Notes under the pieces: model-generated | What the model was told of the DNA's origin: nothing | The model's database searches: none | What the model saw: the letters and a program-made list of their open reading frames with translations, nothing else | DNA from: Candidatus Tectimicrobiota bacterium | Lineage (GTDB): Bacteria > JACPUC01 | Length of the DNA stretch: 64,000 bases | Reading direction: 5' to 3' | Assembly (NCBI GenBank): GCA_016192455.1 | Contig: JACPUC010000003.1 | Location: 1 to 64,000, forward strand | Shown here: positions 1,974 to 19,959 of the stretch, piece by piece | Position numbering within the stretch: the stretch's first letter is position 1 | Layout: each line of letters opens with the position of its first letter | Translations under genes and position numbers: made by a program

Positions 1974-2369
1974 CTATTCCTCCTCCGAACCAACCTCAGC
2001 CTTTCTCGGCCTCCCGCGCCGCTTCGCACCCGGCTTTACCGGCTTTGCGCCAGACTTTGGGAAGGCAAGCGTGCCTTCTGCCTCTACTTTCTTAGGCCTG
2101 CCTCTCCGCTTCCTTGCCTCTTCAAGATAGAAGCTAACCGCGCTTCGCTCACCCCTGAAGGGGAATCGAACGCCCTTGTACAGCGATGCAGCAGCAGCCT
2201 TAAGGGCTTTCTTGACCTTGCCAGGGTCCTCGTCATCATCCAAAGTGATTCTGCCACCCTGATCATTGGCAAGGCCTGCAAGGTAGCCTTTCAGCTCGTC
2301 AACCATCGGCAGAAGTTCGGCAGGAATCTTCGTCTTGAGTTCTGCAAGTGGCACGGGTTCAAATTTCAT
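1974..2369 (-). CDS. Small basic protein with two AT-hook-like motifs
   Basis: KRRGRPKK and KRRGRPRK motifs; AAGGAG RBS upstream of the ATG. Confidence 0.7.
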   Translation of the reverse strand: MKFEPVPLAELKTKIPAELLPMVDELKGYLAGLANDQGGRITLDDDEDPGKVKKALKAAAASLYKGVRFPFRGERSAVSFYLEEARKRRGRPKKVEAEGTLAFPKSGAKPVKPGAKRRGRPRKAEVGSEEE

Positions 2370-2491
2370 GCTGCATCGCTCCTTTCGGACCTGGCGGAAT
2401 GTAAAACTGTCACTGCTCGCGGTAACATAAAGCTATGGGCGCAAGCCCGTCAAGGGAATTTTGACTCTTCCAGTTCGCCGTCGAGCTTGAT

Positions 2492-3100
2492 GTGATGAAG
2501 CGGTGGTGTGCCGGATTTGGCTCGCGCCAACTGCGGCGCGCCCGGGCGAGGATTGACGCGGTGGCGGCGGACATGGCGCCCGCCTCCATCAAAGTGGTGC
2601 GGCGGCACCTCCCCGGTGGACCATCGTCTCGAACCACTTCCACCTCCTCGGGCTCGTCAATGCAAAGGTGGCGCTCCTACGCCAGTTGTTGCACCGCGCG
2701 GCGGAGAGGGTGCTCCAAAAACAGGTCCTGAAGGGCAGCCGCTTGTTGCTGGTGAGGAATCCTGAACATCTCGATGCGCGGCGCCATGTGTGGCTGCGGC
2801 TCCACGAGGCCCTGGCGCTCAACCAACCCCCGGCCACGACGTACGACGTGAAGGAGGACCTGCGACAGCTCTGGACGCAGCCGGACAAGGTTACCGCAGC
2901 CCGCCTCCCTGAGGACTGGATTGCTCGCTCCGAGGCCTCAGGCATCCGCATCCTGCAACGGCTGGTCAGAACCCTTGCCACTTACCGCCGGGACATCCTG
3001 GCCGTCTAAGACATCTCCATCTCCACGGGACCACTAGAGGCCGTCAACAAGAGAATCAAGGTGCTCCAGCGCTAGGCCCTCGGCTTCCGCGATTCGGATG
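2492..3100 (+). pseudogene. ISL3-family transposase remnant
   Basis: Fragments IDAVAADM, LKGSRLLLVRNPEHL, YDVKEDLRQLW, STGPLEAVNKRIKVLQR*ALGFRD with frameshifts and stops. Confidence 0.8.
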
Positions 3101-3113
3101 AACCTCATAATGT

Positions 3114-3824
3114 TCAGGCAACCCCGAAAGAGTTCCTCAGTTCGCTGGGGCGCGCATCAGATTTGGCAGGTAAACTGAAAATGAAGGTAACTCCGTGTTG
3201 CAAATCTGTTGAGTTGCTTGCAAGGTGATCTCCTGAAAGCACGAAAGGACAGGATATGGTGATCCCGAAATCGTTGTCTTCGTTGTATCTCTGAAAAATT
3301 CTCTCGAGTTCCCGTCGCAGGGTTTCAGGCATATACTGCGTTGTCGTAGCAATTACGGTACTTACATGGTTATTTCTTACTTGGCTCGATATCTGAAGTT
3401 CTCCGCCATCCGGAATCGTTTGAAGAGCAAGGATAAGTAGATTAGTGAGTGCCAAGCGGACTTTCGACGGGTTGCCAATCCCTATCGGTAAATCATTCAA
3501 CGTTAAATTAACCGTGAGCTCTGCCCCGCGTTCTCTTGTCTGCTGAATCAATGGCTTAATAACTTCTAGCACCTCGCCAATTGCCGTATTCAACTCTATC
3601 TCGTCGAGCGAATGAATGTGCTTGGAGAGAGGTTTATCGTGTAAGCTTTCTAAGACCCTCGTAACGTCACCACAGCACTGCATGATCAGAGAAAGCTCCT
3701 CCGCGACCGAGGGTTTGGGGAGCAGGGCAGGGTGGTTTTCCAGTAGCCGCGCACTCCTCAAAATCACTAGATCGAGCATTTGGATAAGCTCTTGATAAAA
3801 CCTTTCTAATGCTGGCGCCGACAT
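3114..3824 (-). CDS. Degenerate histidine-kinase ATPase (HATPase_c)-like protein
   Basis: ELNTAIGEVLEVI...GNPSKVRLALTNLLILALQTIPDGGELQIS...GVTFIFSLP; G boxes not recognisable. Confidence 0.6.
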   Translation of the reverse strand: MSAPALERFYQELIQMLDLVILRSARLLENHPALLPKPSVAEELSLIMQCCGDVTRVLESLHDKPLSKHIHSLDEIELNTAIGEVLEVIKPLIQQTRERGAELTVNLTLNDLPIGIGNPSKVRLALTNLLILALQTIPDGGELQISSQVRNNHVSTVIATTTQYMPETLRRELERIFQRYNEDNDFGITISCPFVLSGDHLASNSTDLQHGVTFIFSLPAKSDARPSELRNSFGVA

Positions 3825-3828
3825 GTAA

Positions 3829-4143
3829 TCACTCCTCCATAACTATCCAACCATCCCTCGGCTGTGCCCGGGACTGTCCGTGGTCAGCCAGAGTCTCAAA
3901 TCCGAGACGCCGTACATGGTGTTGCGCCACCCAACTGCAAAACATATGCCAGAAATAATCTGCAGCAATAATTATGAGAATCACCAATATCTCACACAAT
4001 ATCAATATGTTATTCAGCATGACGCCTTCGTCGAAAGCCCACAATTTTCGATTGCGTCTCCTTTCAAAGACGCATAGTATCTTTTTTGATACCCTCATAA
4101 CTGAGTACCTCTCAGGTGCTGGGCGCCACACGCGGGCCTTCAT
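3829..4143 (-). CDS. Small hypothetical membrane protein (start uncertain)
   Basis: Hydrophobic stretch ILILCEILVILIII; ends 5 bp before the next gene and supplies its GAGGAG RBS. Confidence 0.35.
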   Translation of the reverse strand: MKARVWRPAPERYSVMRVSKKILCVFERRRNRKLWAFDEGVMLNNILILCEILVILIIIAADYFWHMFCSWVAQHHVRRLGFETLADHGQSRAQPRDGWIVMEE

Positions 4144-4155
4144 TGGGAAGGGGCT

Positions 4156-5856
4156 ATGCCAATGAGTACTAATGCACAGTGTTTAGTGAGTATAAGAACT
4201 AAAATGCTACGTACTGTCATCCCACTCGTGGCCGTGCCGATCCTCCTCCTAGGGCTGGGATGGTTCGCCACTTCCAAGCTTGAAGAATCAACAAAAAATG
4301 AGCGATTCTTTCAGCAGCGTTCTCAGGATCTGATCGCTATTTCTGAAATTCCTTCTATCCAGAACTTTTTTATTAACTTAGGTTACGGACCAGAGTTTCT
4401 CCCAGAGGCGGATCGTTTTCGCAGAGAAATAGAACGCTATAATGAGAGATTTTTTGTGCGAAACCAGCTTTTCAAGGGAACCCTTTATAAGGACATAAGC
4501 CTCATTGTGCTTATAAGAGACTCCAACGGTATGATTGTGCAATGGAAAGAGGCGCTTCGGTCGACGGCTCAAGAACTTTCTGCTAATCCTACGGCAATTA
4601 TTCCATCGAACACGTACTTGCAATCCGCCCTTCAAAGCGGACCAGGAAAGGTTTCATTCAGCGCCCTGGCCCCAATCATGCACGCCGTAATTCCGATCTA
4701 CAGAGACGAAAACTTTGATGGCCTGAACTCGCCTGCGGAATTAAAAGGGATACTAACGAGCAGCTTTACTTATCCCATGGCTGAATTTCAGCATATTAGG
4801 AAAATGGCATCTTTGACAATTGTATCTATCCTCTTCGCAAGCCTGCTCATAGCGGTGATTATTGTGAGCTTCGTCATCGGCAAAATTACTGAACCCATCA
4901 ATCATCTTGCTGAGGCAACCCAAAGAATTGCGAACGGTCAACTCTCTCTGACGCTTGACGTCAAGACCAATGACGAAATTGGAGCATTGGCTCACGATTT
5001 TAGCAAGATGACCCTTGAACTCAGCCGTTCGATTACGGCGAAAGAGCACTATGCGGCGGAGCTTCAAGCACTGAACACTGAATTAGATATACACGTCCAC
5101 CAACGAACCGAAGAACTCCGTGAAGCAAATAAGAAGCTTCAACTTGCCAACAGGGAGCTTGAAGAAGCTGATCGGATGAAATCAGAATTTCTCGCCAACG
5201 TTTCTCATGAGATTCGTACCCCACTCACCATTATTCGATCTTCGGTATATAACCTTCTCTTAGGTATTGGCGGACCTCCTTCTGAGAAGCAGCAGAAATA
5301 CTTGAAGACGGTGGAGAATAATATACATCGGCTCACGAGTTTTGTTAACGATTTACTAGATTTAGAGCGAATCCGTGCAGGCTTTGTACAGTTCACGCTT
5401 CGCCCTGTCCTGACCTGCAATCTTGTTGAAGTAGTCTTGGACAATCTCGTCGCACAGGCGGCAGAAAAAAATATTACGCTGAACTATGAACGAACTAATC
5501 CGCCCATAGTTGCTTATGCTGACCGGGATCAGACAATTCAAGTACTGACAAATCTTGTCGAAAATGCTATCAAGTTTACCCCCCAAAATGGCAGCATTGT
5601 ACTGAAGACGTATTACGAAAATGGGTCGTGTGTATTAATGGTACAGGATAGTGGAGAAGGAATTCCAGAGCGCGATCTGCCGTTCATCTTTGATCGGTTT
5701 TATCGAGTACAACGTGGGACTGCCGCCAAGGGGAGCGGGCTTGGGCTTTCTATTTGCAAAAGGCTAGTTGAACTTCAAGGAGGCCAGATTCAGGTACAAA
5801 GCAGTCCAGGAGCTGGAACGACGTTTTTTGTTACCTTCGCATCCTACACGCAATAA
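4156..5856 (+). CDS. Membrane sensor histidine kinase (HAMP-HisKA-HATPase)
   Basis: Two TM segments, HAMP (DEIGALA), H box EFLANVSHEIRTPL, NLVENAIKF, DSGEGI, GSGLGL. Confidence 0.95.
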   Translation: MPMSTNAQCLVSIRTKMLRTVIPLVAVPILLLGLGWFATSKLEESTKNERFFQQRSQDLIAISEIPSIQNFFINLGYGPEFLPEADRFRREIERYNERFFVRNQLFKGTLYKDISLIVLIRDSNGMIVQWKEALRSTAQELSANPTAIIPSNTYLQSALQSGPGKVSFSALAPIMHAVIPIYRDENFDGLNSPAELKGILTSSFTYPMAEFQHIRKMASLTIVSILFASLLIAVIIVSFVIGKITEPINHLAEATQRIANGQLSLTLDVKTNDEIGALAHDFSKMTLELSRSITAKEHYAAELQALNTELDIHVHQRTEELREANKKLQLANRELEEADRMKSEFLANVSHEIRTPLTIIRSSVYNLLLGIGGPPSEKQQKYLKTVENNIHRLTSFVNDLLDLERIRAGFVQFTLRPVLTCNLVEVVLDNLVAQAAEKNITLNYERTNPPIVAYADRDQTIQVLTNLVENAIKFTPQNGSIVLKTYYENGSCVLMVQDSGEGIPERDLPFIFDRFYRVQRGTAAKGSGLGLSICKRLVELQGGQIQVQSSPGAGTTFFVTFASYTQ

Positions 5857-5893
5857 GAGTAATCTGCCGCAGCCCAAGAAGGAGGAATGTGGT

Positions 5894-7279
5894 ATGGCAA
5901 AGTATGAAGCAAAAATCCTTATCGCTGATGATGAAGAGGAAATCGTCGATGTCCTGCGCGATATGCTCGAAGCACTTCATTATGAAGTTATTGTAGCTGT
6001 TGATGGATTTCAAGCGCTTGCGCTGATTCGCGAGGAAGAACCTGTTGTCGTGCTGCTGGATTTGAAGCTTCCAAAGTTAGATGGGCTGGAGGTCCTACGC
6101 AGGCTTGCAGAATTGGCAGTAGAAACCACGGTGATTATGCTCACGGCATATGGTACGGTCGAAAACGCCGTAAGGGCAATGAAGATAGGCGCCTATGACT
6201 TCATAATTAAACCTTACAACCCTGAACAGTTGCAGCTGGTTATTGAAAAGGCAGTCGAGCGAGATCGTTTGCGAAGGCAAAACACCTTCTTAAATGAGTT
6301 GGTCAATACCAGGTATAGTCTGCTTATTGGAGGGAATAGGGCCTTCAGAGATGCGTTAGATGAAGCACGTGTGTCCGCAGAAACGGACACGAACATTTTG
6401 CTCGTTGGCGAGACAGGAACAGGGAAGGAAATATTTGCCAGAGCCATACACCGTTGGAGTCGTCGTGCACGTGAGGCATTTGTTCCGATAAATTGCGCAG
6501 CACTCTCAGAGGAACTTCTCCTGAGTGAATTATTTGGGCACGAGAAAGGTGCGTTTACGAGTGCCCATCAAAGAAAACTTGGTAAGTTGGAAATTGCGCA
6601 TAAGGGTACAGTATTTTTGGATGAAATTGGTGATATTGATTTATCAATTCAAGCAAAGTTGTTGCGGTTTTTGCAGGAATATGAATTTGAACGTCTTGGA
6701 GGTAATAAGCAAATCAAGGTTGATATCCGTGTAATAGCCGCCACAAATAAGGATTTGCGGCAGGCTATAAAGAATGGAACTTTTCGGGACGATCTCTACT
6801 TTCGGCTCAATGTCGTTAGCATTATGTTGCCGCCATTGAGAAAGCGACTAGATGATATTCGACTGCTGGCGGACTATTTTCTCCAAAACTGTAATTATTC
6901 AATGAAAAAAAGTGTAAAGGGGATTACCGATGAGGCCTTTGAAGTACTCCAAAACTATACCTGGCCAGGCAATGTTCGGGAACTGCAAAATGTCATTGAG
7001 CGGGCAGTGGTATTCTGCCGCTCCGATGGTATCCATCCCCAGGACATTCTTCTGCAACCCCTTGATGGGCAAATTCTTGCTGGGAGCACTACCACTGCCT
7101 ATCACGACTGTGTCCGGGAATTCAAGCGGCGTCTTATTTATGAAGTACTTCAACAATCCTCCGGAAGCCCAACAAAGGCGGCGCGGACGCTCAAATTACG
7201 AAGAACCTATTTGGCAAGGTTGATCAAACAATTCGACGTTAAATTAACCCCAGCAGGTAGCAGCGACCGGCATGTCTGA
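5894..7279 (+). CDS. NtrC/AtoC-family sigma54-dependent response regulator
   Basis: Receiver (ILIADDE, LLDLKLP), GETGTGKE, ELFGHEKGAFTSA, WPGNVREL, C-terminal Fis-type HTH. Confidence 0.95.
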   Translation: MAKYEAKILIADDEEEIVDVLRDMLEALHYEVIVAVDGFQALALIREEEPVVVLLDLKLPKLDGLEVLRRLAELAVETTVIMLTAYGTVENAVRAMKIGAYDFIIKPYNPEQLQLVIEKAVERDRLRRQNTFLNELVNTRYSLLIGGNRAFRDALDEARVSAETDTNILLVGETGTGKEIFARAIHRWSRRAREAFVPINCAALSEELLLSELFGHEKGAFTSAHQRKLGKLEIAHKGTVFLDEIGDIDLSIQAKLLRFLQEYEFERLGGNKQIKVDIRVIAATNKDLRQAIKNGTFRDDLYFRLNVVSIMLPPLRKRLDDIRLLADYFLQNCNYSMKKSVKGITDEAFEVLQNYTWPGNVRELQNVIERAVVFCRSDGIHPQDILLQPLDGQILAGSTTTAYHDCVREFKRRLIYEVLQQSSGSPTKAARTLKLRRTYLARLIKQFDVKLTPAGSSDRHV

Positions 7280-7505
7280 GCCACAGATAAGCCAAGAAGC
7301 TTCCACTTTCGGAGACCCCGGGTCCCTTTTTCGGTACTTCCTCTAACCCACGAGGAGTAGGAGCGTTCACGGTTTTCATGCGGGTTGCACGTCTGCACAG
7401 CTGCACATGTCGAGGTTTGGCCTTGTTCTTGCTCTTTACCCTGCGCATAGCGCTAACTCCTGTTGAAAAAAACATTTAGAGAAAGTCTTTGCCCGCCTCA
7501 GATTC

Positions 7506-7522
7506 CTGGCATTCGACTTGCT
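7506..7522 (+). promoter_or_regulatory. Sigma54 (-24/-12) promoter
   Basis: CTGGCATTCGACTTGCT: GG-N10-GC spacing, upstream of the GNAT-GT-precursor operon. Confidence 0.75.
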
Positions 7523-7559
7523 TAGTCAGCGATTGTTGCCTTCCGGCCAGGAGTTCACA

Positions 7560-8096
7560 GTGGGCGGTATAAGTCTATTACATCTACATACAAGTACGCG
7601 TGTTCGGACGGTTGAAATAGACGATTATTACTTTATACTCTCCAGCGCCAGCAGGTGGTGGGGAGAACGAGGGCCAGCGATCTTTCCGAGATTCTTTGTC
7701 ACGCACTTCGCTGATACGTGTTTCGTAGCTGAAGGAGCAGAGACCATTGTCGGGTTTCTCTTTTCCTTTCTTTCACAGAAGTACCAGGATGAAGCTTACA
7801 TTCAGGGGGTGGTGGTCGATCCGCAGCACCGCCGCTGCGGCATCGCCTCTCTCCTCTACAAGAGCTTTTTTTCCAACATGATTACGCGAGGGGTCAGGCG
7901 CGTGACAGGCATCCTTTCCCCTGAGAATACTGAGGCGCTCGCGTTCCAAATTTCACAGGGTTTTCGTATCGCTTCCCCTATCCAGTGGGGACAAACACCA
8001 ATCATCGTCAATGGCCTTCCTGCCTTTCCTGATTACCTCGGGGCAGGAAGAAATAAGTTACTCCTTATCAAGACTCTAAAGGAGTCCGGAGCGTAA
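7560..8096 (+). CDS. GNAT-family N-acetyltransferase
   Basis: VVVDPQHRRCGIASLLY acetyl-CoA motif; GTG at 7560 with AGGAG RBS preferred over TTG 7518, which lies inside the promoter. Confidence 0.85.
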   Translation: MGGISLLHLHTSTRVRTVEIDDYYFILSSASRWWGERGPAIFPRFFVTHFADTCFVAEGAETIVGFLFSFLSQKYQDEAYIQGVVVDPQHRRCGIASLLYKSFFSNMITRGVRRVTGILSPENTEALAFQISQGFRIASPIQWGQTPIIVNGLPAFPDYLGAGRNKLLLIKTLKESGA

Positions 8097-8100
8097 GCGT

Positions 8101-9315
8101 ATGAAAATCTGCCTCATCAGCAAGTATCCTCCCATCGAGGGTGGTGTGGCAGCAAAAAGTTACTGGCTCGCAAAGGCACTAGGAGCACGCGGACATCAAG
8201 TGCACGTTGTAACGAACGCTGACGAAGTGGAGGACTCCTATAGGGAGGAAATTCCCGAAGAAGAGAGGGGTCTGCTCGAACCGCAAAACGTTCGCCGTTG
8301 GAGCACTTCGCCTTCGATGAGAAAGCGTTTTATCCCGCAGTACAATCCACACATTGCCAAACTCGCAAATCTCGCGCTTGCAGTGGTGAGAGAAGTTGAT
8401 GTAGACCTTGTGTACTCACATTATCTCCTTCCGTACGGTGTAGCTGCGCTTTTGGTCAAGCAGTTGGGGAAACTGCCTCTGATCGTAAGACATGCCGGCT
8501 CAGATATCACGTCCCTATATCGCGCTCCTTTTTTGCATGAGATCTTGCGTGAAGTCCTCGCAGGCGCAGACGTAGTGCTCGGTACACAAAGGACAAAAGC
8601 TATCCTTAAAGGAAGCGGGATCAACCCAGAAAAGGTGGCCGTAATCAAACAGGCAGTCAATCTACGAGAGTTTCATCCTGACAATCCGGCTTATGATTTC
8701 CGACCGTATGGTATTCCCCACACTGCTGAGTACCCCGTCATCACCTATATCGGAAAGGTTTCAGCGTTGAAGAACCCCACTGCCTTGTTACGCGCTGCAG
8801 CGCGCCTAAAGGATCTCCAATTTTCCTTAGCGTTCGTAGTAGGACGGGGAACGACGATTGAGCAGCTTAAAGGTTTGGCAAAAGAATTGGGAATTGATCA
8901 AAAATGCGTCTTTCTACCCTTTGTCCCCCCTTGGAGCATGTCGCGGATCATGACTGCCTCAACGTGCATCGTAAAACCGGAAAGTGACGAAGAACCGTAC
9001 CTGCCGAGAGGTACCCATTATCCAATCGTATCTCTCGAGGCGATGGCTTGTGCATGCTGCACGATTATCGGTGAAAAAGTAAAAGGGAAGGGTATATACA
9101 GATTCTTTCAGGATGGCGTGCATACCCTCGCAGTGAATCCTTCCAATCCAGAATCATTTGCAGAAAAGCTGGCTTTTATAATTCAATACCCCCAATTGGC
9201 AAAAAAAATCGGCGCAGCAGCTCGGGCGCTCCTGGAACAGCATGACGAGTGGGACGACGCAATCCAAATAATCGAGTCCGTGTTTCTGCGCTGTGTAGAA
9301 ACACATCACGGCTAA
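8101..9315 (+). CDS. GT4 (GT-B fold) glycosyltransferase
   Basis: MKICLISKYPPIEGG, LGARGHQVHVVT, HAGSDI, YIGKVSALKN, IVSLEAMAC. Confidence 0.9.
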   Translation: MKICLISKYPPIEGGVAAKSYWLAKALGARGHQVHVVTNADEVEDSYREEIPEEERGLLEPQNVRRWSTSPSMRKRFIPQYNPHIAKLANLALAVVREVDVDLVYSHYLLPYGVAALLVKQLGKLPLIVRHAGSDITSLYRAPFLHEILREVLAGADVVLGTQRTKAILKGSGINPEKVAVIKQAVNLREFHPDNPAYDFRPYGIPHTAEYPVITYIGKVSALKNPTALLRAAARLKDLQFSLAFVVGRGTTIEQLKGLAKELGIDQKCVFLPFVPPWSMSRIMTASTCIVKPESDEEPYLPRGTHYPIVSLEAMACACCTIIGEKVKGKGIYRFFQDGVHTLAVNPSNPESFAEKLAFIIQYPQLAKKIGAAARALLEQHDEWDDAIQIIESVFLRCVETHHG

Positions 9316-9340
9316 CCCCAGTAGGAGAGGAGGTTGATTG

Positions 9341-9532
9341 ATGGTCAGCACGAGAACCATGTTGGCGTCGGACGTTGCTCAGCTTCTTGAGGTGCGAACC
9401 GCCCGCATCTCAGCAGCTGTCGGGACAAGCATTCCCGGCGGTAACCTGAATCCCGAGTTCGAAGAGGTTTCCCTCTGGGAACCCGCAGATGGATTCTGTG
9501 GTTGCGGTTGCGGGTGTGGGTGCGGTGCCTAA
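9341..9532 (+). CDS. Putative RiPP precursor peptide with C-terminal (Cys-Gly)5
   Basis: Strong RBS AGGAGAGGAGG; 63 aa ending WEPADGFCGCGCGCGCGA; located among tailoring enzymes. Confidence 0.8.
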   Translation: MVSTRTMLASDVAQLLEVRTARISAAVGTSIPGGNLNPEFEEVSLWEPADGFCGCGCGCGCGA

Positions 9533-11022
9533 CGCGCAGCACCGGGTGTCGGTGCGATGCGCACACTTCTCAGAAAGGTGCGCTGGTCCTCTTCTGGTCC
9601 CAGCGCACCAACCCTCTTATTCCTCACCAGGATAAACGGGGAATCATACAGAAAAAGGCAGCAGAGATTGTCGTGGAGCATCTTTTCTAATCTCTGTAGG
9701 AGAACCTTCTGGGTATGAATATCTTGTTCGAGGCTGACCCGCTCCAGCACTTCATCAAAAAGATTATCTTTACGTGACCACCTGAAGATACCATCCTTTG
9801 AGAAGAAGCTGGAAAAAAGGCCAAACGAATCAAATTGGGGGAAAATCGAGGCAATCAATATGTCCCAATCTTGTTGCTGAAGCGCCTCCTTGCTGTATCG
9901 CATGACGTTGATCAGGGGGAAAAAGGCTGACGGATGGAGAGCACTGAAGCTCATGGAAATGCCGAAGGGCTTCAATTGAGCGCGAATAATAAGAGCTAGC
10001 TTTCCCAGGAAATCTGGAACAAGGAGCTTGATGTGAACCTCCGTTCGCTCCTTTTCCATAAAATTTCTCAAGATTCGAGCTCCTTCCGTTGGGTCAAACG
10101 TATAAGGTTCGAGGTCGGGGTTAGAACCAAACATTGAGGGAGGAAGCAGTCCGGCGATAACCCGCCCATTGCCTCCAAGGAAATGATCAATGATTTCGTC
10201 TCTGTTAATTAATAAGTTTAGAGCACGGCGTAAGGGCTTCTGCAGCCAGAGAGAGTTATGTTTCCGTTGGTTAAATACAGCGATCGTCAAGGGCCCAGGG
10301 AGCTTTGAGATTTCGATGTTCGGGTGTGCCACATCGATGTCGGTGAGTGAGTAGCGTGCAACGGTCAAATCAAGTTGACCGTTTTTTACGGCCTCTATTG
10401 CCCATTGGGGATTCGCAGGAGCCGGCACGAGAATGATGCTTGAGATCTTCGGGAAGCGCTTGTCCCAATAGTAGGGGTTGGCCTTGAGCACGATCTTTGC
10501 TGAGGTATGAAAGGTTGTCGAGTGTCCGGAATGAAGAATAAAGGGGCCGGTGCCATAGGGTCCCGGCTCCTTGAGAATGGCGATGGGGGGCTCGGCGTAC
10601 TTGTGTAGGTAGCTGCTTGAGGCAAGAGGAAAAAGGGACAGGCTCAACATAGGAAGCCCTGGCTTATGTGGATAGATAAACCTAATGGTGAAGGGGGAGA
10701 TGACCTCCATCTTCGTGTTGTTAGGGAAAGCCCTGGTCCTTCCTCGTGCTGGTTGGTAGGATTTGTAAACCTCAAAATTCTGTCGCACGACCTCGGCATC
10801 AAATGGCGTACCATCGTGAAAGCGCACACCCCTTCGCAGGTGGAGTTCAAGCGTTCGGACATTGCTCCAGCGCCAGTCCGTCGCCAGGACTCCCTTCGGT
10901 TCGCCATTCAGAACTTCTATCAGTGGCTCGAAGACCAAATCGTGGACATGTGTAAATGGCCGAATATGCCACCCAAAGGTAAGCTGAAAATCTGAGGACG
11001 AAACTACTACCTTTGGATACAT
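9529..11022 (-). CDS. Family 5 (OppA/DppA/NikA-like) solute-binding protein (start uncertain, may extend upstream)
   Basis: LATDWRW, LRRGVRFHDGTPFDAEVV, PYGTGPF, LRRALNLLINRDEII. Confidence 0.85.
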   Translation of the reverse strand: MYPKVVVSSSDFQLTFGWHIRPFTHVHDLVFEPLIEVLNGEPKGVLATDWRWSNVRTLELHLRRGVRFHDGTPFDAEVVRQNFEVYKSYQPARGRTRAFPNNTKMEVISPFTIRFIYPHKPGLPMLSLSLFPLASSSYLHKYAEPPIAILKEPGPYGTGPFILHSGHSTTFHTSAKIVLKANPYYWDKRFPKISSIILVPAPANPQWAIEAVKNGQLDLTVARYSLTDIDVAHPNIEISKLPGPLTIAVFNQRKHNSLWLQKPLRRALNLLINRDEIIDHFLGGNGRVIAGLLPPSMFGSNPDLEPYTFDPTEGARILRNFMEKERTEVHIKLLVPDFLGKLALIIRAQLKPFGISMSFSALHPSAFFPLINVMRYSKEALQQQDWDILIASIFPQFDSFGLFSSFFSKDGIFRWSRKDNLFDEVLERVSLEQDIHTQKVLLQRLEKMLHDNLCCLFLYDSPFILVRNKRVGALGPEEDQRTFLRSVRIAPTPGAAR

Positions 11023-11038
11023 AGTGATGAGGCAAAAA

Positions 11039-11959
11039 ATGAAGAGACATGCAAGACCCCTCCCCCAGCTACCGGCCGTCGGTGTCGGCCTCGGATATCG
11101 CCCTGCGCTACACAGAGAGATAGTATCACATTTGCGCGAAATCACCTGTCTTGAAATCATTATCGACCATTTCCTTGATATGACCCCAGAAAAAGAGGCA
11201 CAGTTTCATGACCTCGCCAGTAATGTCTGTCTCCTCTCCCATGGCATTGGTATGTCCTTGGGAACGGCACTTCCGGTAGAAAGTGCGTATGTCAATAAAG
11301 TTAAGCGAACGCTAGACATCGCGCGCTCCCCCTGGTTCAGTGAACATGCAGCGTTTACGAAAGTACCAGGAATTGACCTTGGGCAGTTGATGCCACTGCC
11401 CTTCACTGAGGAAGCCGTTGATGCGATCACGCAAAATATAGGAAAACTGAAAAACAAAATCAAGCAGCCACTTCTCTTGGAAAACATAGCCTACTATCTC
11501 GCACACCCCGCTGGGGAAATGACGGAAGCGGAGTTCCTCACGCGCATATTGCACAAAGCTAATGTCTACTTGCTCTTGGACATCAATAATGCCTATACCA
11601 ACTCGGTCAATCACAACTACGACCCATATGAGTTTATTCTCTCGCTGCCTCTCGACAGAGTTGTCCAAATTCACCTCGCTGGAGGTGAATGGAAGGGACA
11701 ATACCTTATCGACTCTCATCGGAGGTCGATCTCACGTGAGGTTTGGAGGCTCTTCGATTTTGTCGTCCCGCGTTGTGCGGTGAAGGGCGTTATTGTAGAA
11801 CGCGATGGTCATTACCCGCCATTTTCAGAACTTCTCGAAGAGGTGCGCACGGCGAGGTCCACATTGAGAAAATACGGAATCTTCGTTCGCAGTCTTCGGA
11901 GGAGGGTAACAAGTGTTCCTGGCAGAACAACAAATGCTGCTCGCCCGAGTTCTTACTGA
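11039..11959 (+). CDS. DUF692 / MNIO multinuclear non-heme iron oxidative enzyme (MbnB/TglH/ChrH family)
   Basis: GVGLGYR, SHGIGMSLG, FSEH, LLLENI, LLLDINNAYTNSVNH, QIHLAGG, IDSH, VERD. Confidence 0.92.
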   Translation: MKRHARPLPQLPAVGVGLGYRPALHREIVSHLREITCLEIIIDHFLDMTPEKEAQFHDLASNVCLLSHGIGMSLGTALPVESAYVNKVKRTLDIARSPWFSEHAAFTKVPGIDLGQLMPLPFTEEAVDAITQNIGKLKNKIKQPLLLENIAYYLAHPAGEMTEAEFLTRILHKANVYLLLDINNAYTNSVNHNYDPYEFILSLPLDRVVQIHLAGGEWKGQYLIDSHRRSISREVWRLFDFVVPRCAVKGVIVERDGHYPPFSELLEEVRTARSTLRKYGIFVRSLRRRVTSVPGRTTNAARPSSY

Positions 11960-12761
11960 TGAAGTTGTGCGGCAGGCGATTGCTGGCAGTAATGATGTGG
12001 AGGGATCACTCCGTGAGTTTCCTGACGAGGCTCGTGCCTACCTGCGCGCGCTCGATAGCAGCCGTTTAACCCTCTGTGCCGACCTCATCAAGCAAAAGCG
12101 CGAAGCGAAGATTCGTCAGATGCTTCCTTTAACTATTGGTTTGCTGGGCACGGACGCGGAAGGATTGTTTGCCTCTTTTTTTCCTATGACTCCACCAACG
12201 ACAATCAGTTTTCTTGAGGAAGCGATTGCGTTTTACCATTTTACTTGCTCTCCAAAGTTCGAGACCAGGAATGGCATCCAACTGGTAAGGGAGGTAGGCC
12301 GCTGGGAATTGTTGTGCCATGAAATTTCCCAGGAAACAAAAACCAAGATCTGTCTCTTGTCGTGCTGCACGCAGCATGCGCAACCCCGTGGCCGGATTGA
12401 TGCGAGCACGATTCTACAGAATTGCGCACATGCCAGATGGGAATCGTTTACCTATGAGATACACACTATTGCCAAAAATTACAATGCGAACAATTGCGTG
12501 AAAGCGCCGCGGAAGGATCCTCAGACTTATCTCTTTTACAAGATATCAGGAGTGGAGCAAATACACATTAGCAAAATCAATGAGGTAACAAGGTTATTCC
12601 TCGACTGCTGTGTCGGCGGAAGTCACTTTCGCAAGATAGAGATGGTTTTGCAGGATCGACTAGGAATGAATACCACAGAGAAGAGGAAGGCATTTCGATT
12701 AGCGTTGCATGAGCTTGCCGAACGCCTCTATATGAAGCGCATCATAAGCAGAGTAAACTGA
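11913..12761 (+). CDS. MNIO partner protein (DUF2063/ChrI-like)
   Basis: Overlaps the DUF692 3' end with GGAGG RBS; N-terminus LAEQQMLLARVL...LPLTIGLLG...EAIAFY fits partner proteins. Confidence 0.65.
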   Translation: MFLAEQQMLLARVLTDEVVRQAIAGSNDVEGSLREFPDEARAYLRALDSSRLTLCADLIKQKREAKIRQMLPLTIGLLGTDAEGLFASFFPMTPPTTISFLEEAIAFYHFTCSPKFETRNGIQLVREVGRWELLCHEISQETKTKICLLSCCTQHAQPRGRIDASTILQNCAHARWESFTYEIHTIAKNYNANNCVKAPRKDPQTYLFYKISGVEQIHISKINEVTRLFLDCCVGGSHFRKIEMVLQDRLGMNTTEKRKAFRLALHELAERLYMKRIISRVN

Positions 12762-12763
12762 CA

Positions 12764-14644
12764 ATGTTTCCTCAGGAAATCTCTAACATAGGACGTATTA
12801 ATTTTGCCGGAGCAACGGCGCATCGGGTAACTAATTGGCCGTTTCGACGGATTTTCTCATATTTTTCGAGGTTTAAGAGAGAACTTGTCTTCATCCTTTT
12901 AAGCATTGTACTTGCAGCGGTTGCGCGCACGCTAGTTCCGTTAATTCTGCGCAACATTATTGACCATCAGATAGTTGCGTATGAACCATATCGACTCGCG
13001 CTAACTGTATTATTACTCATCAGTCTCACCCTTGGTGCGGCGCTCGTTGGAATTGTCGAGAATCATGTCAACACATCCGTAACACAGCATGTCATCTTGA
13101 ATTTAAGACAGGAATTATATGAGAGATTGCAGGAGAGCTCTTTGCAAAAGCTTACCAATACCGCAACGGGAGATCTGCTGTCGCGCTGTACGAACGACCT
13201 GACAGGGGTGCAGGAAGTATTGGCGCGTTCATTTGCCCTCAGTACGGCGAATCTCGTGACCGTCCTTGCGACATGCGTCGTTATGTTTTACCTTGACGCG
13301 TGACTTGCGACTTTTACGCTTGCGATTCTCCCCCTCTTTGTCCTCCCGGTTCGGCGCATTGGAAAATTACGTCAAACCGTGAAACATGCTGTGCAAGAAA
13401 GATTAAGCCTTTTGACTTCGCTCTTGGACGAAGCTACTCGGGTTCAAACCGTAATCCTAACTCGGTCATTTAATTTGACAAAACAGCGCACGAAGCACTA
13501 TCGAGAAATAACAGATGAGGTAAGAAAGCTTGAATGTCGGAACCATTTCATTGGAAGATGTTTTCTTCTCCTTCTATCAACAGCCTCGCCAGTTGGGGTT
13601 GCGCTACTGTTTTGGTACGGCATCCCAAAAGTAGCACATGGTGATCTCACCCTAGGCACGTTGATAGCTTTCAGTGCTTACCTGGGAAGGATTTATGCTC
13701 CGGTGAGCCAATTACTTAACGTCCAGATCGATTTTCTTGCCTCCATTGCGTTGTTCCAAAGAATATTTGAAGTCTTTGATCATTATGGCAAACCGAATCG
13801 CCGGGTAAGGGAGAAGAGAATTGTCGAATTTACGAAGGGATCAATAGCGGTAAGAAATCTCTCATTTACGTACGATGCCCAATGTTGGGGCATCAAAGAC
13901 GCTTGTTTTGACATCAACCAGGGGGAGATTGTAGCTCTTGTTGGTCCGTCTGGAGCGGGAAAGACTACCTTGGCATACCTCCTTGCGGCCCTGTATGAGC
14001 CGACCCTCGGCAGTATTTCTATAGATGGCTATAATGTTTTGGATCTTGATGAAAAAAGTCTGCGCCGGTGCGTCGCACTTGTGACAGAAGATAATTGCTT
14101 GCTGGATGCGACGATAAGAGATAATCTTCTACTTGGCAATGAATTGGCCCGCGAGGATGAAATTCTGAAGGCTTGCAAAGCGGTGGGCATACATGATTAT
14201 ATCACCTCACTTTCTAAGGGATACGAGAGTTGGTTACACCAGGGTGGTGCCCAGTTGTCCGCAGGACAGAAAAGGAGGGTGATGCTCGCGAGGGCAATGA
14301 TTAAGAATCCGCTCATTCTTATTCTTGATGAAGTTACTTCTTCCCTTGACCCGATGGCTCAGGATTCCATCAACAATGTTATCAAAGCATTGTTTGCTCA
14401 GCGAAGCGGTCTTATTATAGGTCATCATCTCCCAACAATATTGCTCGCAGATAGAATTCTCGTCATCGAGAACGGAAGAATTGTTCAGCAAGGCGTCCAC
14501 GAAAAACTTGTAAGAGAGGGCGGCCTCTATGCGCGTTTATTTTCCTCATATCCATATAATGGCAGGGATAATAGTATGGAAATTGTGCTCCAGAATTCCA
14601 GGGTAAATACTGCAGATCATAAAGAATACATTCAGGAAAGATAA
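12764..14644 (+). pseudogene. ABC exporter (TMD+NBD) interrupted by one in-frame TGA at 13301-13303
   Basis: ORFs 12764-13303 and 13379-14644 are in the same frame; reads YLDA*LATFTLAILPLF; GPSGAGKT, LSAGQ, ILDE motifs. Confidence 0.85.
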
Positions 14645-14817
14645 CCGAGAGTTGAAGCTTCAAGCATTGCAATACATTCTTTTTATACCTGGTATGAGTG
14701 TTCACGCTGTCTGAGACATACTGACTTGGAAAGTATCGTATTTAATCTGCCCTAGACAGCCTTCACAAAAGAGTGGGGGAAGCGTGGACTTTGAGCTGCT
14801 CAGGATGGAGTATTATT

Positions 14818-16068
14818 ATGAGTATCACAAAACGTCCTTACGAAATTTCAGCAGCAGTGCAGTCTGTCTGCGACCGACTAAATAGACTTTATGACGAGGG
14901 TGCGAAATTATATTTTAATACTATTCGCAGAAAACTTGTGCCTAAACCATCACTACACATTTCCGTCACCAATAGGTGTAATCTGTCTTGCACTTACTGT
15001 TACGACAAGATGAGCCAACCTCCTTTTGTCAAGCGCCGCGATATGAGTACGGATGTTGCGACGAGAATATTCAAACAATATCCTGACCCATCTTATGTAT
15101 TTGTACTGGGAGGAGAACCCTTTTTAAATCCTCACGCTGTTGAAGTTCTGCTCGATCATTGTCCCAACAGAATGGTAATCTCTTCGAACGGGCAAGTGCT
15201 CAATGGCCATGTGGAGAGAATTCTCAAGAAGATTATGCGTCGGAACGAAGAAGGACGTGGGACATTACTCCAGATTTCCTGTGAGCTCGGAGGGGTGAGC
15301 TGCGAGCGAAATACAAGAAATGCTGAAGAAATTCTGCGCTACTTTTCTCATGTATGTGGTAGATTCATGAAAGTAAAATATACCCTGACAGCCCCAGACC
15401 TTATCCATATAGATGCAATAGCCCGTTGGTACTGGGACCGAAATATCCTTGTGCAATTTGACTACGTTGATGGCGGCTACGAGAAGGGAGAAGCAATTGA
15501 TCTCTCTGAGACCAACTGGAAAAGGGTGTTTGCGTTTATTCTTAGCGTGCTGCACGAGAGCTTCGAGGAGTGGGCGCAAGGTAACTCCGATGAATGGTTA
15601 ATTCTTCGCGCCAAAACTCTGGTGCACTATGTTTTTCCGCTGACGGTCATGCAGATCAAACATAAGCATCCGCTCTGGTCAATGTGCGGCGTGTTTGGTA
15701 ATTCTGTCTACATTGGCCCTGGGGGTGAGCTCTTCCCATGCCATCGTTGGAAAGCTAGTGTGGAATCCTACGGTTCTTTAGGAGAGCCATGTGAGAGTCG
15801 CATGTTAGCGTTTCATACCGAATCCTGGCCTTCTCTTCAACGTTACTGTGAAGAGTGTGTGTGGCGGGGAAGTTGTGGCGGTGTGTGTCCAGCGGTAACT
15901 TGCACATATGGCGGATTGAGCCTTATTGGACGGTGTAAATTTATGGGAGCGTTACGGGATGCGGTGTGGTCATTTCTATTGGATAAGACAATTGTGTGTC
16001 ATCCACAAATTGATCAATATCTAGACCTCATAAGAGAACTTTCGCCCTTCTACAAGGCTTTAATATAG
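14818..16068 (+). CDS. Radical SAM/SPASM peptide maturase
   Basis: CNLSCTYC, GGEPF; SPASM CG...GELFPCH...CEECVWRGSCGGVC. Confidence 0.9.
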   Translation: MSITKRPYEISAAVQSVCDRLNRLYDEGAKLYFNTIRRKLVPKPSLHISVTNRCNLSCTYCYDKMSQPPFVKRRDMSTDVATRIFKQYPDPSYVFVLGGEPFLNPHAVEVLLDHCPNRMVISSNGQVLNGHVERILKKIMRRNEEGRGTLLQISCELGGVSCERNTRNAEEILRYFSHVCGRFMKVKYTLTAPDLIHIDAIARWYWDRNILVQFDYVDGGYEKGEAIDLSETNWKRVFAFILSVLHESFEEWAQGNSDEWLILRAKTLVHYVFPLTVMQIKHKHPLWSMCGVFGNSVYIGPGGELFPCHRWKASVESYGSLGEPCESRMLAFHTESWPSLQRYCEECVWRGSCGGVCPAVTCTYGGLSLIGRCKFMGALRDAVWSFLLDKTIVCHPQIDQYLDLIRELSPFYKALI

Positions 16069-16210
16069 CCAGACGAAGGCAGTCTTTTCTATGTCATGTG
16101 TAACGATGTTGTATGAGAATAATACTTTTTCGCCAGCACTTCTTTCAACCCCATTCGTTCATAGTCCTGGTATTTAAAATGTTCACCGCCGTGGGTGCGG
16201 CGCGACAGGT

Positions 16211-16510
16211 TCAGTAGCTCAAGGTGCGGTCGAGGGTGCGGTACATGATGGCTTCGCCGAGGTGGGTTGCCGTGAGGCGCTCCTCGCCCGCCAGGTCGGC
16301 GATGGTGCGGGAGACCTTGAGGATGCGGTCGTGGGCGCGCGCCGACAGGCCGAGCTGGTTGATCGCCGCGTCGAGGAGGCGCTGCGACGGCTCGTCGAGC
16401 TGGCAGTGGCGCCGCAGGTGTTTCGAGGTCATGTGGGCGTTGCAGTAGAGGGAGTCCTTGGCGAAGCGGGCAAGCTGCCGCTGCCGCGCCGCCTCGACGC
16501 GTTCCCGCAC
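16211..16510 (-). repeat. 300-bp duplicated comM 3' end, copy 2
   Basis: Matches 452-751; joined out of frame to the comM 5' half. Confidence 0.9.
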
Positions 16511-16530
16511 GTGAGGTAGCCGCAGGGGCA
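16511..16530. repeat. att-like direct repeat, right copy
   Basis: Exact match to 912-931. Confidence 0.85.
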
Positions 16531-17583: not shown

Positions 17584-17755
17584 GGCGGCTGGACACCCCC
17601 CGCAGGCGCGGCAGCGCGGCAAGGCGAAGACCTCGCGCGCGCACCAAATCATGGCGGCGCGTCATGCAGCGGTTGCAGCATACTCTGTGCCAGCGGGAGC
17701 GTCCAGGGGATTGCAAAGGGGCCCCCATGGGGCCCCGAGGTGGGCGCCGCGTGCC

Positions 17756-19875: not shown

Positions 19876-19945
19876 CGGAAATCCCTCCAGGGACCATGGG
19901 ACTAGCGTCGTACCGTAACGATAGGGTAGCTAGACGCCGGCAGCA

Positions 19946-19959
19946 TTGATGTGGATCAA
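19946..19959. promoter_or_regulatory. FNR/DNR/NnrR-type box
   Basis: Perfect TTGAT-GTGG-ATCAA about 70 bp upstream of the NnrS-like start. Confidence 0.8.

Follow-up and report, generated by a model that had tools for sequence, protein, structure and literature searches.

The question raised by this locus is whether a short open reading frame ending in five successive Cys-Gly dyads encodes a precursor peptide that the products of neighbouring genes convert to a natural product. The ORF is located in the window, the whole stretch of 64,000 nucleotides analysed here, inside a 14.5-kb island of 49% GC that belongs to a groundwater MAG of 66-67% GC. Both island borders are bridged by contigs from a sample of the first study, and over the 1619 nt of positions 8173-9791 a contig from another groundwater study aligns with 137 differences and 2 gaps. 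The island carries genes for a GNAT protein, a GT4 glycosyltransferase, an SBP5 protein, an MNIO (DUF692), a DUF2063/RRE-like partner, an ABC exporter, a radical SAM/SPASM enzyme and a sigma54 two-component pair; the MNIO, partner, GT4 and radical SAM proteins named in the preliminary description of this DNA are all encoded there. The precursor gene is not adjacent to the MNIO gene, with the convergent SBP gene in between. The encoded peptide, P0001, very probably serves as starting material for a metal-binding natural product that iron-dependent and sugar-transferring enzymes encoded nearby form by modifying it. More specifically, the ORF is likely to encode a signal-less MNIO RiPP precursor that matures in the cytoplasm and whose Cys-Gly dyads are modified by the neighbouring enzymes. 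The preliminary observation of the ORF was confirmed, and the interpretation given to it is partly supported.

P0001 consists of 63 amino acids and is encoded on the forward strand at 9341..9532 (ATG 9341-9343, TAA 9530-9532), with a leader of about residues 1-50 and a core, F52-A63, that contains the five Cys-Gly dyads. The C-terminal end translates as GFCGCGCGCGCGA, and the ten codons of the tail (tgt ggt tgc ggt tgc ggg tgt ggg tgc ggt) are mixed exactly as had been written. The ribosome-binding site, earlier called very strong, is the purine-rich Shine-Dalgarno sequence AGGAGAGGAGG (9323..9333, forward strand), positioned 7 nt ahead of the ATG. Tandem Repeats Finder assigned the Cys-Gly codon run a period of 6, 4.5 copies, 80% matches and a score of 33, and since the default threshold is 50 the run is not a clean microsatellite. 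When all 4.46 Mb of the genome were translated in six frames (8.9 million residues), at least three consecutive Cys-Gly units occurred three times, with the run of five found in the precursor only. The absence of a signal peptide, also claimed before, agrees with the hydropathy of the first 40 residues, where the top 11-residue Kyte-Doolittle window reaches 1.15 and the N-terminus is broken up by Asp, Glu and Arg; by this measure P0001 appears to have no hydrophobic stretch of the Sec type.

A homology search, proposed earlier as a check, revealed one homologue in which both leader and core are kept. This single match among 1.84 billion representative proteins, P0003 (65 amino acids, encoded on a 1209-bp contig), shows 55% identity to P0001 over residues 9-62 (E 1.5e-11). 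Residues common to both peptides in leader and tail are D11, V12, L16, E17, R19, A21, R22, L36, P38, E39, E41, E42, S44, W46, D50, G51 and F52, with substitutions scattered across the leader. The P0003 tail is a six-Cys alternating sequence in which Ala replaces a Gly and one extra Cys is present relative to P0001. Together with the repeat score and the uniqueness of the five-dyad run in the genome, this homologue speaks against microsatellite slippage, which the preliminary description had contrasted with protein-level selection. Judged from its sequence, the ORF is a genuine conserved small gene. Searches with P0001 elsewhere retrieved no curated family in NCBIfam and Pfam, the self-match alone in a word-based protein search, four chance-level rows (E 4 to 10) in a plasmid collection and no usable match in the ESM Atlas; in a JGI metagenome scan based on the two-peptide alignment, 589 stretches matched the pattern and tblastn confirmed none.

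The acidic segment ahead of the core, LNPEFEEVSLWE, had been proposed as a recognition motif. Its residues L36, P38, E39, E41, E42, S44 and W46 are kept in P0003, and the segment starts with NLNP, which is positioned at -19 from the Cys cluster like an F-x-L-x-P-like leader motif of the sister families described below. These points favour the proposal; on the other side, the motif was significant at only one of the three widths used, where none of 40 shuffles reached it (width 5), while 12 did so at width 6 and 3 at width 7 (40 shuffles each), and P0001's own best site moves with the width. A three-chain structure prediction with MNIO, partner and peptide was made as well, in which the controls did not separate.

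The MNIO (11024..11959, forward strand) matches PF05114 with 1e-80 and 271 bits (cut-off 25). It retains all 29 columns that are invariant in a 33-sequence alignment, including H68, H103, E148, D181, N184, H212, D225, H227, E254 and D256, among which we take the iron ligands to be included on the basis of the MbnB and TglH structures. With respect to the first component expected of an MNIO-dependent RiPP pathway, the locus thus appears from its sequence to encode a DUF692 enzyme with intact conserved, presumed metal-binding residues. Among the NCBIfam models, BufB and HvfB rank far above ApyH, ChrH and MbnB, and neither cut-off is reached (BufB 224.4 bits versus 310, HvfB 216.1 bits versus 360). 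The best match among PDB sequences is 3BWW (1.1e-38, 136 bits), followed by TglH (3.6e-33, 118 bits). The enzyme scores below both the BufB and HvfB cut-offs and is almost as close to TglH as to 3BWW, so that more than one type of reaction is conceivable for it.

The next gene (11913..12761, forward strand) encodes a divergent MNIO partner with, according to its predicted fold, a DUF2063-like helical domain and an RRE. The ESM Atlas model (pTM 0.74) has TM scores of 0.74-0.79 to DUF2063/NGO1945_C/HvfC clusters, the match covering the whole protein with 245-269 residues aligned; a single-sequence AlphaFold2 model had a pLDDT of 35 and was set aside. A two-domain partner of the DUF2063-like plus RRE type is therefore predicted to follow the MNIO. 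At the sequence level the protein has no Pfam family at E ≤ 0.01 and scores 23.5 bits with NCBIfam HvfC (cut-off 142). A word search of 5.8 billion proteins with 706 candidates gave the protein itself alone, and neither the protein nor its 10-sequence profile matched anything meaningful among PDB sequences. Homologues were found in none of the 40 genomes of the 'relatives' set, all of which are kin at domain level only, nor in the plasmid collection. The partner fits the 'PME-type 2' as defined by Antoine et al. 2025 (PMC12452194), and the combination of a signal-less precursor with a partner that has no Pfam DUF2063 signature matches a correlation described there.

Evidence on the role of the GT4 glycosyltransferase (404 amino acids, 8101..9315, forward strand; Pfam, NCBIfam) comes from its relatives. 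The curated models MshA (88 bits) and BshA (72 bits) are both far below cut-off, and phmmer connects the protein to nine loci with E-values of 2e-57 to 7.5e-31. It is homologous, with 30-33% identity across residues 1-398, to the N-terminal half of GT4s of 639-726 amino acids encoded beside related MNIOs. Seven full-length homologues of this size are fusions with a partner-like RRE domain, which the window GT4 lacks. For one of these (locus L023), a model of the C-terminal ca. 250 amino acids (pLDDT 71.7) matched TglI (8hi7_A, 7.6e-6; 8hci_A, 5.8e-5), NGO1945 (3dee, 1.5e-3) and PqqD (5sxy, 3.3e-2). The RRE part of the window's partner is homologous to these fused domains, as the profile of the C-terminal domains aligned to the partner-family profile with a probability of 98.6% and an E-value of 1e-15 in hhalign. 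GT4 relatives with their own leader-binding domain are direct genomic evidence for glycosylation of an MNIO product. In the literature searched, no paper describing MNIO/DUF692 clusters with a glycosyltransferase, a radical SAM enzyme or a PME2 was found; supplements may hold related sequences.

The GT4, the partner and the small ORFs occur in the same part of the MNIO family. In a tree of 95 MNIOs, obtained with a quick search and with long branches flagged, the window's enzyme is on a side of 35 rows (SH-aLRT 90), the smallest starred set containing 40 rows (96). All nine loci with a homologue of the window GT4 and all 16 partner-match loci in the tree are on this side, and the other side of 60 rows has none of either. 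The gene following the MNIO matched the partner by phmmer in 17 loci, the 17th of which (L038) is outside the tree. Of the 34 loci on this side other than the window, 16 have a short Cys-rich ORF near the MNIO gene and on its strand; with the filter applied, none was found in the other 18. Tails of these sister ORFs include SCACVCVCACIISAA, CSCSCSCS, CGCGCGC and CGCGCSCSCS. Runs of at least three Cys-Gly, Cys-Ala or Cys-Ser units occur in nine frames of the 95 loci; seven are short Cys-rich ORFs, all on the window's side, and the two others (L039 and L080) look spurious. The sister Cys-rich ORFs inspected have, by eye, acidic N-termini without a hydrophobic signal-like stretch, and seven sister peptides gave no family in NCBIfam and Pfam at E ≤ 1, except for two chance-level rows. 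A contig scan with the MNIO yielded 15 loci with at most 42% identity, all on the other side of the tree. By MNIO grouping, the homologous GT4 and the short signal-less Cys-rich ORF, the window appears from its gene content to belong to the clade defined here.

The remaining island genes are linked to the peptide in a different way. Since phmmer found no homologues of the radical SAM, GNAT and SBP proteins in the 95 related MNIO loci, it is adjacency that links these three to P0001. The GNAT acetyltransferase (7518..8096, forward strand; PF00583, 1.1e-10) has a probable true start at GTG 7560, which is preceded by a GGAG RBS. The solute-binding protein of the SBP_bac_5 family (9529..11160, reverse strand; PF00496, 1.5e-45) is closest to nickel and metallophore binders, with 79 bits for NikA and 54.5 bits for CntA, all below the cut-offs; its start codon is uncertain because the ORF overlaps the start of the MNIO gene. 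The ABC exporter (12764..14644, forward strand) has a transmembrane domain and an ATPase and no peptidase domain. Export of a signal-less peptide by an ABC transporter, as suggested earlier, is plausible insofar as the island encodes this exporter, the point against it being one in-frame TGA at 13301-13303. Selenocysteine was considered at this TGA, given that the genome has a tRNA-SeC, and is unlikely within a membrane helix.

The radical SAM/SPASM enzyme (14773..16068, forward strand; PF04055; TIGR04085 SPASM, 31.2 bits, cut-off 27) could suggest that P0001 is a substrate of this protein only, with thioethers that join Cys sulfur to carbons of Asp, Glu or other residues as in ranthipeptides or sactipeptides, and that the MNIO acts elsewhere or is a bystander. 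The enzyme has a canonical CX3CX2C motif and the full SPASM motif (CX2CX5CX3C), its top curated matches are peptide maturases that form Cys thioethers (PapB, 2.8e-19, and the QhpD, SCIFF and CefB families), and ahead of the Cys run there are acidic residues shared with P0003 (E39, E41, E42 and D50). The arrangement resembles that of PapB-type ranthipeptides in which a SPASM radical SAM enzyme is encoded beside a Cys-rich peptide with acidic residues. However, none of the maturase matches comes near its cut-off (PapB 69.6 bits versus 340, the best stretch covering the SPASM region only), and a homologue of the radical SAM enzyme is found in 0 of the 95 related loci, while Cys-rich small ORFs accompany MNIO, partner and GT4 there. 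The roles of the two enzymes are moreover not exclusive, and the reading in which the MNIO has no part is improbable. The suggestion that Trp, Asp and Glu residues of P0001 serve as radical SAM acceptors is, in view of the weak similarity to the PapB family, only compatible with the sequence.

Two further readings dispense with peptide modification altogether. Five closely spaced Cys residues and a neighbouring NikA/CntA-like binding protein would also suit an unmodified, metallothionein-like metal-binding protein or chaperone in a metal-related island, but the conserved Cys-free leader of some 50 residues is typical of RiPP precursors and not of metallothioneins, and the linkage of such Cys-rich ORFs with MNIO, RRE-bearing partner and RRE-fused GT4 argues for enzymatic processing; we consider this quite improbable. 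It is hardly credible that the ORF has no product and arose as a random reading frame or a repeat prone to slippage: it is short, belongs to no curated family and has one homologue only, whereas the P0003 match, with substitutions across the leader and a tail kept with Ala for Gly and an additional Cys, the strong RBS at 7-nt spacing, the mixed codons with their low repeat score and the genome-wide uniqueness of the tail all speak against it.

For the signal-less MNIO RiPP, the following route is proposed. The RRE domain of the partner would, by homology, hold the leader of ca. 50 residues with its L-x-P/acidic stretch, and the Cys residue in each of the five dyads would be oxidised by the MNIO. 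By analogy to captophorins and bufferins, 5-thiooxazoles would be the most likely outcome, to which we give close to an even chance; another MNIO reaction on Cys, such as formation of an oxazolone-thioamide or excision of the beta-carbon, is a lesser prospect. The product would contain closely packed heterocycles, each bearing a thiolate and set apart from the next by one glycine-derived carbon, and may act as a soft-metal ligand. The conserved linkage of the GT4 and the RRE fusions in sister clusters suggest that the GT4 glycosylates the peptide. More speculatively, the GNAT and radical SAM/SPASM enzymes could tailor it further by acetylation or by a thioether from Cys to an acidic residue, after which the ABC exporter could release the product, whose metal complex may return via the NikA/CntA-like binding protein.

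In captophorins, bufferins and oxazolin, an MNIO with a PME-type 1 partner converts Cys to 5-thiooxazole, as described by Gadgil et al. 2026 (PMC13097082) and Antoine et al. 2025 (PMC12452194); the former report that 5-thiooxazole absorbs UV light at about 305 nm. The window resembles the captophorin and bufferin systems in the order of MNIO and two-domain partner, the Cys-rich ribosomal precursor, BufB and HvfB as best curated models, and a plausible role in metal handling. The Cys-Gly dyads of P0001 correspond to the preferred context reported for FonB, a thiooxazole-forming MNIO, in PMC13097082. Whereas most MNIO-PME1 precursors carry a Sec signal peptide according to PMC12452194, P0001 has none by hydropathy. 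The window's partner also differs in having no Pfam DUF2063 signature, and its MNIO scores below both cut-offs and is separated in the tree from the Legionella- and Cellvibrio-type loci, which fall on the other side. Instead of EGKCG or DUF2282, the precursor has a plain (Cys-Gly)5 run as its core, and the window adds genes for GT4, GNAT, radical SAM/SPASM, ABC exporter and SBP5; a DoxX gene was not found among the island ORFs scanned. The adjamnio-1 and adjamnio-2 families are described in PMC12452194 as Cys-motif candidate precursors without Sec signal located beside small-cluster MNIOs with PME-type 2 partners, and they have no known product; the window and its sister loci follow the same scheme, and the adjamnio sequences are in Fig. 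S3 of that paper. The main text of PMC12452194 contains no 'glyco-' words and no 'SPASM', and its four mentions of 'radical' describe no MNIO cluster with a radical SAM gene.

Similar to the TglHI/pearlin system (PDB 8HI7, 8HCI), the window has a signal-less substrate and a DUF2063-like partner of non-Pfam type, with TglH as second-best PDB match of the MNIO and TglI as top structural match of the sister GT4 RRE-type domain. In the pearlin pathway the PEARL enzyme adds one Cys at the C-terminus, and this is the residue on which TglH acts, whereas P0001 has five internal, genetically encoded Cys residues; a general family scan of the island ORFs found no gene resembling peptide-aminoacyl-tRNA ligases. 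Methanobactin (MbnA, MbnB and MbnC, with MbnE and the exporter MbnM) is likewise a secreted metal chelator for which an MNIO acts on Cys, and according to PMC7558416 an OppA/AppA-related periplasmic binding protein takes the metal-loaded peptide. This binding protein, MbnE, is comparable to the SBP_bac_5 protein of the window. The precursor is different, the window's MNIO scores 28.8 bits with the MbnB model (cut-off 325), and neither MbnC nor a TonB-dependent transporter was found among the island ORFs scanned.

Few subjects in RiPP enzymology are studied as actively as the MNIO enzymes. To our knowledge, nearly all characterised Cys-modifying MNIOs work with secreted, signal-peptide-bearing precursors and a DUF2063 partner. 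The window provides a concrete member of a different, barely described branch of this known enzyme family, with a cytoplasmic precursor, the simplest core, (Cys-Gly)5, and a divergent partner. A run of adjacent modified Cys residues would bear on how densely an MNIO installs heterocycles and could yield a new type of metal chelator; for comparison, a set comprising 16 loci with candidate precursors and nine with the GT4 is at hand. A wider proposal is tenable but, taken as a whole, rather unlikely: window and sister loci would represent an uncharacterised RiPP class in which the MNIO clade, the divergent partner and the GT4, mostly RRE-fused, turn alternating Cys residues into a glycosylated sulfur-heterocycle ladder, and the window's five dyads with radical SAM and acetyl tailoring would lead to a secreted Cu or Ni chelator with re-uptake via its own NikA/CntA-like SBP, all encoded on a mobile sigma54-controlled island of a deep-branching groundwater bacterium.

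Expression of the GNAT-GT4-precursor operon may be switched on by the adjacent kinase and NtrC-type regulator from a sigma54-type promoter. Inside the island, a sensor histidine kinase (4156..5856, forward strand; HAMP, HisKA and HATPase_c in Pfam) is followed by an NtrC-type response regulator with a sigma54-interaction AAA+ domain (5894..7279, forward strand; Pfam Response_reg and Sigma54_activat, 3.9e-68), for which the listed ORF begins at TTG 5768 and Met 5894 is the inferred start. A candidate -24/-12 element, TGGCAT-N5-TTGCT (7507..7522, forward strand), lies 38 nt ahead of GTG 7560, and the genome has an rpoN gene (461 bits). As the number of sigma54-type sites in the window as a whole is not above chance (62 found versus 72 expected), it is position that points to this element. 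A sigma70 promoter scan of 7200-11300 gave 3 sites versus 3.1 expected, none adjoining the peptide gene. Right after the precursor stop codon, two stable hairpins (9534..9609, forward strand) have an RNA fold of -50 kcal/mol (z -4.23), a stability that none of 200 shuffles reached, and are a possible terminator or transcript stabiliser. These hairpins overlap the 3' end of the convergent SBP gene.

The ORF at 9341-9532 (+) runs from ATG 9341 to TAA 9532 and encodes a polypeptide of 63 residues (P0001, the candidate precursor) with the C-terminus GFCGCGCGCGCGA. The tail has five Cys-Gly pairs in mixed codons, for which Tandem Repeats Finder reported a weak period-6 array (4.5 copies, 80% matches, score 33), and the ribosome-binding stretch AGGAGAGGAGG stops 7 nt upstream of the start codon. 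Two stable hairpins (z -4.2) are located 3' of the stop codon. When the complete 4.46-Mb genome was translated in six frames, at least three consecutive Cys-Gly units were seen three times, and five units at P0001 only. No hydrophobic stretch is present at the N-terminus, where the top 11-residue hydropathy window is just 1.15. The frame, its mixed-codon Cys-Gly units, the ribosome-binding site and the absence of an obvious signal peptide, all proposed in the preliminary description, were confirmed from the sequence, and the conservation of the ORF was upheld by a homolog. A word-indexed protein search with P0001 returned a self-match alone, and HMMER, run exhaustively over 1.84 billion representatives, recovered a single true relative, P0003, a protein of 65 amino acids known from one 1209-bp contig (E 1.5e-11, 55% identity, residues 9-62). 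The third row of this search, a repeat protein (E 6e-4), matches residues 11-39 only and was disregarded. Common to P0001 and P0003 are the leader positions D11, V12, L16, E17, R19, A21 and R22, followed by L36, P38, E39, E41, E42, S44, W46, D50, G51, F52 and the Cys run; the C-terminus of P0003, GFCGCGCACGCGCGS, contains six Cys, with one Gly replaced by Ala. Because substitutions are found across the Cys-free leader while the tail is preserved, the substitution pattern is that of a coding gene under selection.

The nearby MNIO gene (11024-11959, +) encodes a DUF692 oxidase that matches PF05114 at 271 bits, retains 29 of the 29 invariant columns in an alignment with 32 homologs, and has a top homolog of 48% identity among 5.8 billion proteins. 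The nearest curated models, BufB (224 bits, cut-off 310) and HvfB (216 bits, cut-off 360), are followed by ApyH (104), ChrH (80) and MbnB (29 bits), and among PDB entries the HvfB-like 3BWW (1.1e-38) and TglH (3.6e-33) are nearly tied. The partner protein (282 amino acids; gene at 11913-12761, +) belongs to no Pfam family, matches HvfC weakly (23.5 bits vs 142) and had no relatives by word search. Its ESM Atlas model (pTM 0.74) aligns over nearly the full length to DUF2063/NGO1945_C/HvfC clusters with TM 0.74-0.79. Antoine et al. 2025 (PMC12452194) describe a PME-type 2 partner with a DUF2063-RRE-like structure overlooked by the Pfam signature, accompanied by precursors lacking a Sec signal; with its DUF2063-like predicted fold outside any Pfam family, the window's partner fits this type.

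All ORFs of 95 related MNIO loci (80 from a second scan of metagenomes, with the alignment of MNIOs as query, and 15 genome loci) were searched with the window's proteins. Homologs of the glycosyltransferase GT4 (8101-9315, +) were found in 9 of the 95 loci (E 2e-57 to 7.5e-31) and homologs of the partner in 17 (E 4.5e-13 to 9e-4); the radical SAM/SPASM enzyme (14773-16068, +), the GNAT protein, the binding protein (SBP) and P0001 had no homolog in any ORF of these loci. In a maximum-likelihood tree built quickly from 95 MNIOs, the window's enzyme belongs to a side of 35 rows (SH-aLRT 90; the smallest starred set has 40 rows), with long branches flagged around its row that leave its exact sister unsettled. 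This side holds all nine GT4 loci and all 16 partner-match loci present in the tree, and the opposite 60 rows, including Legionella and Cellvibrio loci, contain neither. Some sister loci have further tailoring genes after the MNIO and partner genes: an asparagine-synthase-like gene, a 2OG-Fe(II) oxygenase, a metallo-beta-lactamase fold protein and MacB in L022, and a carbamoyltransferase, an asparagine-synthase-like gene and a methyltransferase in L040, whose partner shows a weak N-terminal 'Frankia_peptide' match.

A search for small ORFs near the homologous MNIO genes gave Cys-rich candidates: a short Cys-rich ORF is present on the MNIO strand in 16 of 34 loci of the window's side, mostly directly upstream of the MNIO gene, and none passed the filter used in the other 18, many of which are short contigs. 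At the level of the clade, small Cys-rich ORFs are linked with the genes for MNIO, partner and GT4. By eye, the inspected ORFs have acidic N-termini without a hydrophobic signal-like stretch. The peptide of L020, the locus with the closest JGI MNIO (46%), has the tail SCACVCVCACIISAA; other alternating tails are CSCSCSCS (L060), CSCGCS (L049) and CGCGCSCSCS (L056), and CGCGCGC followed by a basic tail occurs in L051, L062 and L074. L023 has CACHAECACHGGLCACSCACIA, and the peptide of L022 has five Cys, three of them within Cys-Gly dyads. The pattern (C[GAS]) repeated at least three times was found in nine frames of the 95 loci, seven of which are short Cys-rich ORFs, all in the window's clade; the frames in L039 and L080, the latter on the opposite strand, look spurious. 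None of seven sister peptides tested matched a curated family. Five loci (L051, L062, L066, L074 and L082) share a family of proteins of 53-159 amino acids adjoining the MNIO genes, in which a WRLYPN-like stretch precedes a short run of alternating Cys (CGCGCGC or CGCNCGC), in many cases with a tail rich in Lys/Arg after it; this family also matched no curated family.

Residues 1-398 of the window's GT4 (404 amino acids) are 30-33% identical to the N-terminal part of the sister GT4s. The seven complete sister proteins, encoded beside MNIO genes (L022, L023, L037, L040, L056, L060 and L062), are larger, with 639-726 amino acids, and in four of the seven the C-terminal part of ca. 250 residues weakly matches PqqD or NGO1945_C. 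A model of the L023 C-terminal domain from a seven-sequence alignment (pLDDT 71.7, pTM 0.65) matched TglI (7.6e-6 and 5.8e-5), NGO1945 (1.5e-3) and PqqD (3.3e-2) in the PDB, and the domain profile matched that of the partner family, which has the window's partner in its first row (98.6% probability, E 1e-15, 114 columns). On these grounds the sister GT4s are fusions with their own partner-like, RRE-type leader-binding domain, and this argues strongly, at the genomic level, for the same ribosomal peptide being the substrate of GT4. The window's GT4 has no such domain and would have to do without one or rely on the separate partner protein.

When ten leaders, each from a different family, were searched for motifs by expectation maximisation, eight of them had an F-x-L-x-P-like 5-mer located 17-25 residues upstream of the Cys cluster, with a score reached by none of 40 shuffles; widths 6 (12/40) and 7 (3/40) were not significant. 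In P0001 the best 5-mer is GNLNP at -19, which takes in L36 and P38, both shared with P0003, and the best 7-mer is FEEVSLW at -13. The proposal that the acidic segment LNPEFEEVSLWE holds a recognition motif thus receives modest support.

By comparison with the sister loci, the reading of P0001 as a precursor, put forward in the preliminary description, is well supported. Against it stand the in-frame TGA of the exporter gene, the convergent gene between P0001 and the MNIO gene, and the radical SAM enzyme, GNAT and SBP, which among the 95 loci are unique to the window's island. If P0001 is a precursor, the RRE of the partner would bind its leader and the MNIO would oxidise Cys residues of the Cys-Gly dyads. 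Thiooxazole would be the best guess for the product: the nearest characterised MNIO families produce 5-thiooxazoles, and a preference of FonB for Cys-Gly has been reported (PMC13097082). Given the near tie with TglH, the reaction may also be another type of Cys chemistry. More speculatively, GT4 might glycosylate the peptide at some site, acetylation might also occur, and the radical SAM enzyme might form a thioether to the conserved acidic residues. The product might then be exported and recaptured by the SBP, as an analog of MbnE, the OppA/AppA-related binder of copper-methanobactin in the methanobactin system (PMC7558416).

Such a pathway would work like that of the captophorins/bufferins, but differs in three defining features: the MNIO scores below the curated cut-offs, the partner lacks the Pfam DUF2063 signature, and the peptide lacks a Sec signal. 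By curated models the system is also not a member of the methanobactin or PapB-type ranthipeptide groups. The nearest printed description is that of the 'adjamnio-1/-2' candidate precursors, reported without a known product (Antoine et al. 2025, PMC12452194); the main text of that paper contains no word beginning with 'glyco' or 'SPASM'. Literature searches for MNIO with glycosyltransferase, for DUF692 with glycosyl, radical SAM or cysteine-rich, and for MNIO with PME2 returned no paper that deals with clusters of this kind.

The genes are part of a 14.5-kb island (bases 2001-16500) of 49% GC, by far the longest low-GC stretch of an assembly whose 31 contigs have 66-68% GC. The host genome is an 88% complete MAG, to which the 40 nearest genomes compared are related at domain level only. 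Along the island follow the genes for a histidine kinase, a sigma54-dependent response regulator, GNAT, GT4, P0001, a convergent SBP_bac_5 binding protein (nearest curated models, all scoring under cut-off, NikA and CntA, the binder of staphylopine), the MNIO, the partner, an ABC exporter and the radical SAM/SPASM enzyme. No tRNA gene was found within 1-24000 of the window, and no integrase among 12 flanking ORFs scanned. The genome contains rpoN, and a site TGGCAT-N5-TTGCT lies 38 nt upstream of a GTG with a GGAG ribosome-binding site, the putative GNAT start; with 62 sigma54-type sites in the whole window vs 72 expected, there is no enrichment, so that only its position speaks for this assignment. 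Another sigma54-like site, TGGCATATGTTTTGC (3937-3951, -), is located 113 nt upstream of an ORF (3114-3824, -), divergent from the kinase gene, whose 236-aa product belongs to no Pfam family.

The island stretch was detected in groundwater metagenomes. Contigs from a further sample of the first study span the left (1156-5624) and right (13974-16302) borders, and parts of the stretch are present in runs of three other studies. One contig covers 8173-9791, including the P0001 ORF, with 137 differences and 2 gaps over 1619 nt; further island and flank pieces are 90-95% alike. The exporter gene (12764-14644, +) is a single reading frame with one in-frame TGA (13301-13303), not a frameshift; identical letters are present in contigs from another sample of the first study, four distant ABC proteins aligned with the product do not reveal which residue belongs there, and the genome has a tRNA-SeC gene. 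At the right border, yifB (16211-17652, -), for a Mg-chelatase-like ATPase, is split near 16430-16510 into overlapping frames of 407 and 99 amino acids by either a frameshift or an assembly error, in a region (16303-16516) that the contig pieces listed do not reach. A second, small low-GC patch (19501-22000, about 50-56% GC) contains a gene with a type I restriction HSDR_N-like domain (20369-21262).
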